Virus record (IMG/VR): IMGVR_UViG_638341196_000008
DNA from: a virus
Taxonomy: Duplodnaviria; Heunggongvirae; Uroviricota; Caudoviricetes
Reading direction: 5' to 3' (one strand)
Length of the DNA stretch: 44,694 nt
A program made the translations under genes and the position numbers. The notes below the pieces were generated by a model. That model was not told the DNA's origin. It ran no database searches and worked only from the letters and a program-made list of their open reading frames with translations. How positions within the stretch are numbered: the first letter of the stretch is position 1; every line of letters begins with the position of its first letter. This document shows, piece after piece, positions 5,669 to 12,184 of this stretch.

Positions 5669-5825
5669 CTGTTCCCTCCCTGTGCGGCATGGTCGCATGT
5701 GCGTGCGGAGGGGGTTACTGCTTTTTGTTGTCGCCGTGGCGGGAGAACGGCGCAGGGGTGAGATTACGCGCGTGGTGGGTGATGATTGTTGCCGAATCAT
5801 TTAACGGATACAAGGGGCTGAAGCT

Positions 5826-7010
5826 ATGAGTGAAACTCGTTTTCATGGTGCCCGTGTTACGGAAAATACCGACCTGGTAACAGCGATTAACGATGTTGAT
5901 TCCAGCATTATCGGTATCGTGGCAACGGCGGATGATGCGGACGCGAAGCTGTTCCCGCTGAACAAGCCCACACTGCTGACCCGCGTCAATGACGTGCTGG
6001 GAAAATGCGGGACAACGGGGACGCTTTATCGTGCGCTTAAGGCCATCGCAGACCAGGTGAGCACAAAGGTGATCGTCGTTCGCGTGGCTGAACACAAAGA
6101 AGAAGACGGAAAGACGCAGGATCAACTGGTTATCGGTGGTTCTGAGGATGACGGCAGCTATACGGGGATGTATGCGCTGCTTGTTGCAGAGCAGGATGAA
6201 AGCATCGGATACCGTCCGCGTATTCTGGCCGCGCCGGAGCTGGACACGGAGGCGGTAACAAAATCCCTGTGCGTGATTGCGGGTAAACTGCGCGCGTTTG
6301 TGTATGCCTCATGTCACGGCTGTAACACGATGGCTGAGGCGATTATCTACCGCCAGAAATTCAACGAACGTGAGGTGATGCTTCTGTGGCCGGATTTTAT
6401 CGCTTACAACCCGAAAAGTGGTAAAAACGAAACGTTCCCCGCGCCTGCTTATGCGTGCGGCCTTCGTGCGTATATTGACCATGAGCAGGGCTGGCACAAA
6501 TCGCTGTCCAATGTTCCGGTTAAAAATGTCCTGGGCATGTCAAAACATGTTTTCTGGTCGTTACAGGCCGAGGACAGTGACGCCAACAGCCTCAACAACA
6601 AGGAAATCACCACCATCATTCGCCGCAACGGGTTCCGCTTCTGGGGCAACCGCACACCGGAAACGAACGCCTACATCTTTGAGGTGTATACCCGAACCGC
6701 ACAGGTGCTGGCTGATTCAATTGCGGAAGCGCAGTTTGAAACCATCGACAGTCCACTGACACCTGCGAACGTGAAGGATGTTATCAGCGCCATCAGGGCA
6801 AAACTGGATTCGCTGGTTACTGCCGGGAAACTGATTGGTGCGGAGTGCTGGTATGACGTGGTGGATAACGGCACCACGGATTTACGTCAGGGACGTGTGC
6901 GTATTCGCTACAAATATACGCCCGTTCCGCCACTGGAAGACATGGAGCTTTACCAGACGTTTACTGATGAATTCTTTGGTCCCGCATTTGCGGTGCTGGG
7001 AGGTGCCTGA
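5826..7010 (+). CDS. FI: Tail sheath protein (P2 gpFI-like)
   Basis: 394-aa ORF, length and sequence typical of contractile tail sheath; followed by tube gene. Confidence 0.85.
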   Translation: MSETRFHGARVTENTDLVTAINDVDSSIIGIVATADDADAKLFPLNKPTLLTRVNDVLGKCGTTGTLYRALKAIADQVSTKVIVVRVAEHKEEDGKTQDQLVIGGSEDDGSYTGMYALLVAEQDESIGYRPRILAAPELDTEAVTKSLCVIAGKLRAFVYASCHGCNTMAEAIIYRQKFNEREVMLLWPDFIAYNPKSGKNETFPAPAYACGLRAYIDHEQGWHKSLSNVPVKNVLGMSKHVFWSLQAEDSDANSLNNKEITTIIRRNGFRFWGNRTPETNAYIFEVYTRTAQVLADSIAEAQFETIDSPLTPANVKDVISAIRAKLDSLVTAGKLIGAECWYDVVDNGTTDLRQGRVRIRYKYTPVPPLEDMELYQTFTDEFFGPAFAVLGGA

Positions 7011-7520
7011 TGGCTGTACCAAAACATCTTCGCTTTTTTACGTTGTTTGTGGATGGTGAAAACGAAGTGGGCAAAGTGACATCCGTCACGCCGCCCAAAC
7101 TGACGCGCAAAACCGACAGCTATCGTGGTGGTGGCATGATGGGGGCGGTAAGTATTGATCTCGGTCTGGACGACTCCGCGCTTGATGCGAGTTTTGTCAT
7201 GGGGGGAGCTGTTCGTGCGCTGTTCCTTAAATATGGCGGCACGATTGACGGCACGCTGCTGCGTTTTGCGGGTGAATACTACACCGATGCAGAAAGCGAT
7301 CTGTATGAAATCGAGATGCGCGGGCGTGTGACGGAAATTGATATGGGGAAGCCAAACAGGGCGAAGCCACATCACACACTTACGCTGTCAAAAACACCTA
7401 CTACAAGCTGAGCGTTAACGATCGCCCGCTGTGGGAAATCGACCTGTTGAACCACATCTACCGGAAGGACGGCAAGGACATTGTGCCTGACCGTATCCGT
7501 TCCGCGCTTGGGCTTGGCTG
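7010..7520 (+). pseudogene. FII: Tail tube protein (P2 gpFII-like) with C-terminal frameshift
   Basis: ORF ends at 7411; the conserved C-terminus (...YKLSVNDRPLWEIDLLNHIYRKDG...GLG*) continues in another frame to 7520. Confidence 0.7.
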
Positions 7521-7576
7521 ATAAGTAATATGCAGGCGGCGCAGTGCGTCGCCTCTGACTGAAAAGGAGACAACTA

Positions 7577-8115
7577 ATGAAAGACATCGATACTGAAACC
7601 CGGAATAACACCGTGGCGGATGATGTGACGGCAGGTGAGGATATGGCTGTCGAACGTGGCGTAAAACTGACCCGACCAATTGAGCGTGGTGGCGAAAAAA
7701 TCACGTATGTGGAGATCACCGGGGCTATTGAGCAGGGTGGATCCCTGCGTGGTCTGTCGCTGTCTGATGTGCTGAATCTGAAAGCGGATACCATGTTTAC
7801 GCTGTTGCCTCGCGTGACCTCGCCACGACTGGATGAAGTGATGATTAAAAAAATGTCGTCACGCGATTTTATTCAGTTGTGCGCTGTGGCTGTAAATTTT
7901 ATGAGCGAGCCAGACTCTGGCGCGAAGAGCGTGCAGGAGACGGCAGCGTAATCACCCTGGTGTGCTTTGAGCACATCGAAGATCTGGTGGCGGATATTGC
8001 CGCCATTTTTAACTGGTCGCCCGCCGAAATCTTCATGATGACGCCCGGCGAAGTGGTTAGCTGGCGCGAGCGGGCGGCACTTCGCAGCGGGAATGCAGAT
8101 AATGAAGACTCTTGA
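7577..8115 (+). CDS. E: Tail assembly chaperone E with -1 frame extension E' (gpE/E'-like); shift site not identified
   Basis: E ORF 7577..7951; a -1 frame is open from 7849 to 8115 and overlaps the T start, as in P2 E/E'; A7 run at 7846-7852; E is longer than P2 E. Confidence 0.55.
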
Positions 8116-10915: not shown

Positions 10916-11410
10916 ATGGCCATGATGATGATCTACGGCATGTTTGTTTTTGAGCTGCGCACGTTGCCGCATCAGCAGTTACAGCAAAACAAAAGCTGGC
11001 GACATGTGAAAAATGAACGCGTTAACCGTTCAGCAAGCTGGCAGTATATCGGTGCAGGTGATGATCGCATCGTTCTTTCTGGTGTTCTTTATCCTGAGAT
11101 TACTGGTGGCGAAGTGTCGCTGTCGTTGTTGACCACGCAGGCATATACAGGACGTCCTTGGCCTTTGATTGATGGCGTCGGGCAGATTTACGGCATGTAT
11201 GTCCTGACCGGAACGAATACGACCCGCTCCGAGTTTGATCGCTACGGTAAGGCGAAAAAGATAGAATTTTCACTGACTCTTGAACGCTGTGACGAGGATT
11301 TGCGGGAGCGCCTGCAATCCTCATCGTTCAGCGATATGCTGTCCGGCTTCAAAGATAAGGTGACATCATCCCTTAATAGCGCGGCCAGCTCAGTTAAGGG
11401 GCTGCTCTGA
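10916..11410 (+). CDS. U: Tail protein gpU-like
   Basis: 164-aa ORF immediately after T; position matches P2 U. Confidence 0.75.
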   Translation: MAMMMIYGMFVFELRTLPHQQLQQNKSWRHVKNERVNRSASWQYIGAGDDRIVLSGVLYPEITGGEVSLSLLTTQAYTGRPWPLIDGVGQIYGMYVLTGTNTTRSEFDRYGKAKKIEFSLTLERCDEDLRERLQSSSFSDMLSGFKDKVTSSLNSAASSVKGLL

Positions 11411-11566
11411 TTTAACGTATGTCGCCAATTTCCTGATGAAGGTGACTGGCGACTTGCTGTTGTATGTCCTTCTCAGAAAATTGTTTTTGAATAACAAATA
11501 ACAGGATTTTATAATCTCTTAACCTTATAACATGTGTGGTCTGAAATAATAATTAAGGAGATTATC

Positions 11567-12139
11567 GTGCTATCTTACTTAATGGCAATTCACTTTGTTT
11601 TATTTGGAAACTCTACTAATTTAAAAAACTTCTGGAAACATGAAGTAATTCGGCGGAAACGTATGGATATCTGGAGGCTTTTAAGAGAGAAAAAGCAGCG
11701 TAACCGGAATTTCCTTTTCTGGTGGCGGTTGGCTAACGAAATGTATATTAATGGTAATAAATTACATAAGAAAGCAGCCAAAAAGTTAAACAGTAAAATA
11801 ATTAACAAGTTTGGTTGTGAAATAGGATTGGGCGCAAATATTGGAAAAGGGTTGACAATTCCCCATCATGCTGGAATTGTTGTTCATTTTGCTGTTGATG
11901 CGGGTGAAAATCTGGTATTACGACAGAATACTACCATTGGACAGATAGATGGTGATATGCCTGGTTCAAGAGTAAAAATTGGTAGTAACGTTGATATCGG
12001 AGCTAATTGTTGCATCATTGGATTATCACGTAAAATTGGGGATAATGTAAAAATAGGTGCAATGTCTTTTATAAATAAAGATATACCATCAAATTGCACA
12101 TATATAACTAAAAAGAGTGGTGTTGTATTGTATAAATAG
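11567..12139 (+). CDS. Hexapeptide-repeat (left-handed beta-helix) acetyltransferase, cargo gene in AT-rich segment
   Basis: Repeats IGLGANIGKGLTI / VKIGSNVDIGANCCIIG / IGDNVKIGA typical of CysE/NeuO/WcaB-type O-acetyltransferases; SD AAGGAG then GTG at 11567. Confidence 0.75.
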   Translation: MLSYLMAIHFVLFGNSTNLKNFWKHEVIRRKRMDIWRLLREKKQRNRNFLFWWRLANEMYINGNKLHKKAAKKLNSKIINKFGCEIGLGANIGKGLTIPHHAGIVVHFAVDAGENLVLRQNTTIGQIDGDMPGSRVKIGSNVDIGANCCIIGLSRKIGDNVKIGAMSFINKDIPSNCTYITKKSGVVLYK

Positions 12140-12148
12140 AGTACATAA

Positions 12149-12184
12149 AGCCATCGATATTTTTGTCGATGGCTTTTTCTTTTT
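12149..12184. terminator. Rho-independent terminator (9-bp stem agccatcga/tcgatggct, then T-run) between acetyltransferase and tfa
   Basis: Hairpin plus tttttcttttt read directly. Confidence 0.6.

Follow-up and report, generated by a model that had tools for sequence, protein, structure and literature searches.

Opposite orientation of the FI-U tail genes in a P88-like E. coli prophage: very probably the normal order of a large P2-like Enterobacterales clade

Introduction

The window analyzed here, a 44,694-nucleotide stretch of viral DNA, holds a decayed P88-like (Xuanwuvirus-type) P2-family E. coli prophage adjoining flk, in which the tail genes FI through U and the D gene occupy opposite strands. 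We take this orientation (at a probability of about 0.9 for the whole explanation, its inferred steps included) to be the normal order of a large P2-like clade in the Enterobacterales, stemming from a single ancient inversion. The operon-breaking inversion became fixed in a deep clade, with D apparently saved through shared use of the pF promoter's symmetric Ogr site. Phage P2 is not the gene-order reference for every P2-like prophage, and annotation or quality-control pipelines that treat FI-U as rearranged would raise this flag in about a quarter of complete E. coli genomes.

Genomes with the inverted order have already been published. Since P88 and PhiSM are plaque-forming phages (PMC5285337, PMC6456863), the order is functional. 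The inversion goes unmentioned in the P88, PhiSM, and SEN4/5 papers, and the inversions discussed in the Xenorhabdicin paper concern the fibre region, not FI-U.

Late Gene Layout of the Window

Gene identities were assigned by tblastn with P2 and P88 proteins, together with Pfam (Table 1). The P2-like (Peduoviridae) contractile-tail late set is present, with homologues of FI, FII, E/E', T, U, D, and Ogr. A previous sequence-only reading had placed FI-FII-E-T-U on the plus strand between D-ogr and the tfa-H side, both on the minus strand, and the assignments bear this out. Beyond H, the genes I, J, W, V and onward to O are likewise on the minus strand, with P and Q on the plus strand; the V-W-J-I-H operon ends at H and the macro-domain gene, converging on the FI-U block.

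Table 1. Features of the late region, with positions in the window and the evidence for each.
Feature	Position	Strand	Basis	Identity to homologues
ogr-type late activator (86 aa)	4256-4516	-	Pfam PF04606 Ogr_Delta, E = 5e-14	42% to P2 Ogr; 93% to E. coli CP148331 homologue
D, tail/baseplate hub, pseudogene	4559-5668	-	Pfam PF05954 Phage_GPD	97.6% to P88 D; 48% to P2 D (tblastn)
D-FI spacer, 157 bp, putative bidirectional Ogr-dependent late promoter	5669-5825		sequence and comparison	
FI, tail sheath	5826-7010	+	Pfam sheath domains	98% to P88 FI; 46% to P2 FI (tblastn)
FII, tail tube, frameshifted	7010-7521	+	Pfam PF04985 Phage_tube; two HSPs in different frames	
E and E' frameshift extension, tail assembly chaperones	7577-7951 and 7960-8112	+	Pfam: Phage_TAC_7 (weak); Phage_P2_GpE, E = 1e-12	E, 34% to P2 E; E', 96-100% to P88 and CP148331 E'
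T, tape measure protein	8093-10909	+	Pfam PF10145 PhageMin_Tail, E = 2e-55	94% to P88 T; 33% to P2 T (tblastn)
U, tail protein	10916-11410	+	Pfam PF06995 Phage_P2_GpU, E = 1.5e-38	99% to P88 U (tblastn)
Cargo slot, right junction	11411-12182	+	promoter/terminator scan, Hexapep	
Sigma-70-like promoter of cargo (predicted)	11487-11515		promoter scan	
Hexapeptide (serine) acetyltransferase	11567-12139	+	Hexapep	99% to CP148331 annotated serine acetyltransferase
Hairpin terminator (predicted)	12147-12176		terminator scan	
tfa, tail fibre assembly, G-like, pseudogene	12183-12761	-		98% to CP148331 tfa
Macro-domain gene	12769-13671	-	Pfam Macro	
H, tail fibre	13690-15816	-		N-terminus 71% to P2 H, 93% to P88 H

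The F operon of P2, pF-FI-FII-E/E'-T-U-D, is made up throughout of genes homologous to those of the window (33-48% identity). An E/E' frameshift pair and an Ogr activator are common to both, as are a dyad activator site located ~83-88 bp before the FI ATG and a cargo slot that separates the fibre-assembly gene from the F genes. The P2-type single operon FI-FII-E-T-U-D is, however, absent from the window. In P2, D closes the operon and shares a single base with U, whereas in the window it forms a separate divergent unit because FI-U is inverted; D is thereby separated from its ancestral operon, as the sequence-only reading had recognized. The same reading had held that a single in-place inversion restores the P2 order, and one inversion of FI-U does indeed suffice, but not with the boundaries proposed for it, 5669-12182, since inverting that segment would land the cargo between U and D. 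The simplest block that differs from P2 runs from 5669 to ~11420, that is, from the pF promoter through U. A boundary at ~11420 leaves the acetyltransferase in the position and orientation that Z/fun has in P2, namely between tfa and the block and on the other strand from the late genes.

Distribution and Age of the Order

The order of the Xuanwuvirus P88 (NC_026014) matches that of the window: ogr, D; then FI, FII, E, E', T, U; then cargo; then tail-fibre genes through to O; then P and Q. The P88 annotation puts D on the strand opposite to U-T-E'-E-FII-FI. Over window positions 4000-11417 the two are 93.5% identical, and the P88 late proteins are 94-100% identical to those of the window, with the exceptions of E (74%), O (81%), and the frameshifted FII; H and tfa match P88 only in part. 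The window also shares the Xuanwuvirus trait of a D gene diverging from FI-U across a spacer of ~157 bp. On the other hand, its integrase and repressor (44% and 32% identical to those of P88) are of another type, and it differs from P88 in an added macro-domain gene, a different fibre tip, and an inverted early region.

Identical order and orientation are found in the further Xuanwuvirus genomes PhiSM, P884B11, 500465-2, PhiR44_2, and Chuche, which, like P88, are collinear with the window across both junctions. Because these references share the order, the arrangement is not specific to this genome or its assembly, and the private inversion or misassembly implied by the sequence-only reading is contradicted. 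In all, collinearity with window positions 4000-13000 (at least 80% covered) extends to 11 phage records and, out of 5426 complete E. coli genomes, to 1331.

The divergent junction between D and FI extends well beyond these close relatives, to 42 phage records. Among the phages with the same divergent arrangement of D and FI-U are SEN4 and SEN5 of Salmonella (Senquatrovirus; the order of SEN5 is that of the window), Klebsiella 3LV2017, ST16-OXA48phi5.4, Enterobacter phiT5282H, and Serratia KSP20. All are more distant relatives: D is 62-71% identical in SEN5 and the Klebsiella Kp48xx phages, and the others named here have 68-73% nucleotide identity over the D-FI junction. The hosts and cargo of the SEN4/SEN5, Klebsiella, Enterobacter, and Serratia phages differ from those of the window. 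The order is likewise that of all 80 IMG/VR loci examined (identity of D to P88 D, 64-99%), and GTDB species representatives contribute 47 loci with it, from ~25 genera across the Enterobacterales. Another 21 GTDB loci keep the P2 order; their D is 48-54% identical to P88 D and scores better with P2 D as the query.

The split between the two orders is recovered in neighbor-joining trees with bootstrap support of 100/100 for D, 100/100 for FI, and 98/100 for U, which points to a single, ancient, and fixed inversion. The split is not recovered with J, a result we ascribe to mosaicism in the baseplate and fibre module, and J was left out of the argument on origin. In Pseudomonas phage Dobby, Ralstonia phage RsoM1USA, and Vibrio phage VP58.5, the genes from the sheath through U to D are all on one strand; from these three outgroup genomes we infer that the change went from the P2 order to the inverted one.

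Proposed Origin of the Inversion and Alternatives

The proposed course of events is that the segment from the pF promoter through U inverted once, long ago, with one breakpoint between the tail-fibre/cargo region and pF and the other between U and D. Such an event would have brought the Ogr-binding site of pF, which has dyad symmetry, to the position immediately before D, pointing away from it, and the former G-FI cargo slot would survive as the convergent U/tfa junction. The junctions retain no recombination trace of the causal inversion in the repeat search. That search, for inverted and direct repeats, returned only short mismatched matches (the longest being 27 nt at 70% complementarity), none of which pairs 5669-5825 with 11411-12182, in line with the prior statement that obvious inverted repeats are absent there. 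It also gave neither the inverted IS copies nor the exchanged target duplications of an IS-mediated event for FI-U.

The orientation of FI-U relative to P2, taken together with the IS elements of the window and one genuine IS-mediated inversion elsewhere in it, might suggest that a P2-ordered prophage was flipped recently and privately, or was misassembled. The collinearity of both junctions in the phage records (11) and E. coli genomes (1331) counted above, a D-FI spacer that is base for base that of P88, and a block without flanking IS copies or inverted repeats make this exceedingly improbable. Just as improbable is programmed inversion of the block by a site-specific invertase, of the kind that switches the tail-fibre segments of P88, Mu, and P1. 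All 129 clade loci with both FI and D have a single orientation, the alternative never being seen, and the block ends have no inverted recombination sites. While a DNA invertase gene often adjoins U in P88-like phages, the window junction has none, and the invertase of P88 flanks alternative fibre genes rather than FI-U.

Import of the FI-U module from another phage lineage in the opposite orientation, with no inversion in place, deserves somewhat more weight, given that P2-like phages are mosaic, that the J tree departs from the order split, and that tail-fibre and cargo modules have clearly been exchanged. Even so, the D, FI, and U trees agree on the split, no closer sheath-to-U block was seen from another lineage, and the divergence from P2 is similar inside and outside the block (33-46% identity for FI-U; 48% for D, 47% for V, 44% for W, and 47% for Q, with D, V, W, Q, and P together spanning 44-48%). 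We thus consider an import unlikely and retain the in-place inversion.

The D-FI Spacer as a Putative Divergent Promoter

The window, P88, and CP148331 have the same D-FI spacer at 100% identity, although the genes on either side differ. It holds a dyad, TGTTGT-N12-AGAACG, at 5726-5749, the core of which, TGT-N12-AGA (5729-5746), is centered at 5737.5. A -10-like hexamer, GATGAT, lies at 5781-5786 on the plus strand, towards FI, and another, GACCAT (the reverse complement of 5689-5694), is directed towards D; the two are placed symmetrically, 43.5-48.5 bp from the dyad center. The O-P spacer of the window has the same box with the same geometry. In the annotated pO/pP promoters of P2, a single activator site has -10 elements ~44-49 bp to either side, and the mapped start sites are 55-56 bp from the dyad center. 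Both P2 pO/pP and the D-FI spacer thus have one central dyad between divergent units, with the D-FI case being a sequence prediction backed by comparative footprints.

The box of the window, TGT-N12-AGA, has one mismatch to the consensus TGT-N12-ACA and came to light only when the D-FI and O-P spacers were compared; a strict search of the window for TGT-N12-ACA gave 8 matches against 11.3 expected by chance, none of them at a late promoter. Of 109 unique spacers, 88 have a TGT-N12-A(G/C)A box at 80-88 bp from the FI ATG; in these the D ATG, predicted from start codons and Shine-Dalgarno sequences, is mostly 66-71 bp from the box. A minority have a box-to-D distance of 76-79 bp or one that is otherwise different, which in part reflects automatic prediction of the start codons. 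Of the 21 spacers scored as lacking the box, many are start-codon mispredictions or belong to a Providencia subgroup, which has a different dyad in place of the TGT-N12-ACA box. Of 21 non-redundant clade spacers, 16 have an xAxxAT hexamer on the D strand at a distance of 44-49 bp from the dyad, against a background of 3% at other offsets; among P2-order relatives, only 2 of 19 have it.

Judging from the spacer, D probably has a promoter of its own. Because the inversion left the Ogr site of pF in front of D, the gene would most likely be read from a divergent late promoter that uses this one activator site, as in P2 pO/pP; sequence and analogy suggest both that Ogr binds there and that D is transcribed from the shared site. 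The predicted D leader of just ~14 nt counts against a shared-site promoter. We lean slightly towards the view that the inversion turned a one-way pF into a two-way promoter of the pO/pP type with a new D-side -10 element conserved in the inverted clade alone. If true, this would be a compact case of a symmetric activator site letting an operon break survive. A less likely, though still credible, arrangement is that D does without the shared Ogr site, being driven by an independent constitutive promoter or expressed together with ogr from another signal; in P2, ogr is served by a promoter of its own that lies just past D, and the box-less Providencia subgroup fits this arrangement as well. Against it are the fixed position of the D-strand hexamer in diverse clade spacers and its rarity in P2-order relatives, the lack of a good sigma-70 -35/-10 pair in the D-FI spacer in the promoter scan, and the fact that D is a virion protein, required late.

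Cargo at the Right Junction and Decay of the Prophage

The acetyltransferase at the right breakpoint is AT-rich, as noted earlier from the sequence, with a GC content of ~0.39-0.41 as compared with 0.53-0.58 in the block. Where the window has this gene, P88 has a DNA invertase and alternative fibre genes, and P2 has Z/fun at the equivalent position.

The prophage is incapable of making tails or replicating. In D, Gly99 has become a stop (GGA to TGA at 5372-5374), while P88 and CP148331 keep GGA; in FII, one G has been lost from a G-run near 7345, a deletion absent from both of these genomes. The translation of tfa contains an in-frame stop, J is frameshifted at about 16535-16554, A is truncated, and IS insertions are present. 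A real and recent inversion, mediated by IS66-family copies with junctions at 30510, 33227, 40935, and 43652, is found elsewhere, in the early region, where the segment 33228-40929 lies between two such copies and shares the 8-bp flank ATTTCTCC.

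Late gene order in the window

The window carries a P2-family prophage, as established by ORF listing, Pfam and tblastn with proteins of P2 and of Escherichia phage P88, and it adjoins the E. coli genes yfcJ and flk in a flank 99.1% identical to E. coli O111 strains. The same analyses bear out the sequence-only reading that FI through U occupy the strand opposite to D and the other late genes. A repeat search at the junctions likewise agrees with it that no inverted repeats flank the block, and the AT-rich acetyltransferase cargo is indeed found at the right junction. While the observation is confirmed, its interpretation is supported only in part.

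Features of the prophage and its edge in window coordinates, left to right (hok-like gene, ogr, D and FI through U from ORF listing, Pfam and tblastn)
Feature	Position	Strand	Remark
VasI/TagO-like type VI secretion-associated and zinc-ribbon genes	2432-3662	-	just beyond prophage end; AT-rich, GC ~0.37-0.41
hok-like gene	3927-4064	-	
ogr	4256-4516	-	
D	4559-5668	-	
D-FI spacer	5669-5825		157 bp
GACCAT	5689-5694	-	
dyad TGTTGT-N12-AGAACG	5726-5749		centre 5737.5
GATGAT	5781-5786	+	
FI	5826-7010	+	
FII	7010-7521	+	
E and E'	7577-8112	+	
T	8093-10909	+	
U	10916-11410	+	
hexapeptide acetyltransferase gene	11567-12139	+	AT-rich, GC ~0.4; own sigma-70-like promoter
hairpin terminator	12147-12176		3' of acetyltransferase gene
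tfa	12183-12761	-	
macro-domain gene	12769-13671	-	300 aa
H, I, J, W, V, S, R, lysis genes, X, L, M, N, O		-	
P, Q		+	right of O
ORF in cargo region between Q and parM	27972-28502	-	Pfam match to Mom family weak, below threshold
IS66-family copy 1	30503-33232, or about 30510-33227		
early region C, cox ... A	33228-40929		
IS3-family element	34290-35563		rve integrase core, HTH_21
IS66-family copy 2	40930-43659, or about 40935-43652		

The macro-domain gene, 99% identical in CP148331 (the closest E. coli genome), has an unusual position between H and tfa; fibre-associated and cargo roles are candidates. The TagO homologue in CP148331 carries a frameshift annotation.

The same order in related phages

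The orientation of FI-U is not a rearrangement of this genome: P88, PhiSM and other P2-like references share it, a finding that the sequence-only reading had named as one that would refute it. The 9 kb from 4000 to 13000 are collinear in one piece (at least 80% of their length) with 11 phage records at 91-95.5% identity, among them P88, PhiSM, P884B11, 500465-2, 520873, PhiR44_2 and Chuche. Of 5426 complete E. coli genomes, 1331 are collinear as well, the best of them matching the full query at 97.8%. P88 and the other Xuanwuvirus share this order, carry late genes that are near-identical and are the closest known phages; the P88 annotation runs from H-tfa through an invertase cargo to U-T-E'-E-FII-FI, all on a single strand, and then to D, which lies opposite them. 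The D-FI spacer is base-for-base identical in the window, P88 and CP148331, although the adjoining coding sequence varies at several positions. A divergent D|FI junction occurs in 42 phage records, including Klebsiella 3LV2017, ST16-OXA48phi5.4 and the Kp48xx series, Enterobacter phiT5282H and Serratia KSP20; Salmonella SEN5 (Senquatrovirus) has the same D|FI-U junction. Because P88 and PhiSM form plaques (PMC5285337, PMC6456863), the P88 gene order is functional, the block acting like the P2 F operon minus D. Papers on P88, PhiSM and SEN4/5 are silent on the inversion, an ordinary feature already visible in many published genomes.

Origin and extent of the inversion

Loci around D homologues were fetched from IMG/VR (80) and from GTDB species representatives (80). 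In each of the 80 IMG/VR loci, where D and P88 D share 64-99% identity, FI...U and D diverge and ogr lies downstream. The GTDB loci comprise 47 in P88 order (D at least 61% identical to P88 D), 21 in P2 order (48-54%, the P2 D query scoring higher) and 12 degraded or cut by contig ends. Hosts of the 47 are Salmonella, Serratia, Symbiopectobacterium, Edwardsiella, Erwinia, Pantoea, Enterobacter, Kosakonia, Klebsiella, Pectobacterium, Brenneria, Providencia, Xenorhabdus, Photorhabdus, Morganella, Hafnia, Yersinia, Citrobacter and others. Neighbour-joining trees recover the split between the two orders with bootstraps of 100 for D, 100 for FI and 98 for U (100 replicates), so that block and D have one common history, and the pattern points to a single inversion event. 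In three outgroups (Pseudomonas phage Dobby, Ralstonia phage RsoM1USA and Vibrio phage VP58.5) the sheath, tube, E, T, U and D genes follow one another on a single strand; the P2 order is therefore ancestral and that of P88 derived.

Import of FI-U as a foreign module is unlikely: genes of the block have 33-46% identity to P2, similar to the 44-48% of D, V, W, Q and P outside the block, and the D, FI and U trees recover the same split. The block is not a switchable segment, since none of the clade's loci examined in IMG/VR and GTDB has FI-U in the alternative orientation.

That one inversion restores the P2 order, as the sequence-only reading held, stands for 5669 to ~11420 but not for 5669-12182. 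In P2 and the outgroups U directly adjoins or overlaps D, and the P2 cargo gene Z/fun sits on the opposite strand between G and pF, the F operon promoter. Inverting 5669 to ~11420 yields tfa, the acetyltransferase gene on the opposite strand and then pF-FI...U-D, exactly as in P2; the inverted segment therefore comprised everything from pF to U. What was the G/FI slot is now the convergent U/tfa junction, and this cargo slot holds an invertase and alternative fibre genes in P88 and the acetyltransferase in the window and many E. coli genomes. Two large Escherichia phages, JL22 (99.6 kb) and vB_EcoM-Ro157c2YLVW (80.7 kb), contain a segment 91-93% identical to the acetyltransferase-tfa module (11567-12755), which suggests that unrelated phage types have exchanged this module.

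A putative two-way promoter for D

Upstream of D on its own strand lie 5.7 kb of antisense FI-U with a terminator beyond, so D needs a promoter within the D-FI spacer and is probably transcribed from there. This spacer resembles the pO/pP promoter of P2, for which the GenBank annotation gives one activator site (3057-3087) serving both divergent promoters, with mapped starts 55-56 bp to each side. GATGAT and GACCAT each lie 43.5-48.5 bp from the dyad centre; a nearly identical box (TGTTGT-N12-AGAACA) is present in the O/P spacer of the window, where CATCAT and TAATCT are equally far from that spacer's own dyad. The box recurs in 88 of 109 unique spacers, its distance to the ATG being 80-88 bp for FI and mostly 66-71 bp for D. 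Of 21 spacers mutually less than 80% identical, 16 have an xAxxAT hexamer on the D strand at 44-49 bp from the dyad (against 3% at other offsets) and 20 have it on the FI strand; P2-order relatives have the FI-side element in 16 of 19 and the far-side element in only 2 of 19. We consider it somewhat likelier than an even bet that the inversion made pF a two-way promoter of the pO/pP type. The D-FI box has one mismatch to the consensus, a strict consensus-box search returned nothing at the window's late promoters, and the predicted D leader is short (~14 nt).

Providencia-type loci (L079, L080, L110 and L116) lack the TGT-N12-ACA box in the FI-D spacer and have instead a perfect dyad, GGTTCTCAT-N6-ATGAGAACC, which may reflect altered specificity of the Ogr-like activator.

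Decay and recent rearrangement of this copy

This prophage copy is heavily decayed and defective. Codon 99 of D (5372-5374) is TGA, where P88 and CP148331 have GGA; a G-run near 7345 in FII is one G short, a lesion absent from both; the J alignment is split over two frames around 16535-16554; tfa has an in-frame stop; and the replication gene A, truncated by an IS at 40932, misses its last ~178 codons. The separation of D from its operon, noted in the sequence-only reading, is without practical consequence here because D is already a pseudogene.

The early region, by contrast with P88 and P2, is inverted, and the identical IS66-family copies on its two sides face in opposite directions. The 8-bp flank ATTTCTCC is found on the right side of copy 1 and, read in the IS's own orientation, on the left side of copy 2, the signature expected of IS-mediated inversion; this inversion is real and recent. 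With the remaining two flanks unmatched and A shortened, an adjacent deletion of the 3' end of A is indicated. A further IS, of the IS3 family, is inserted in the early region.
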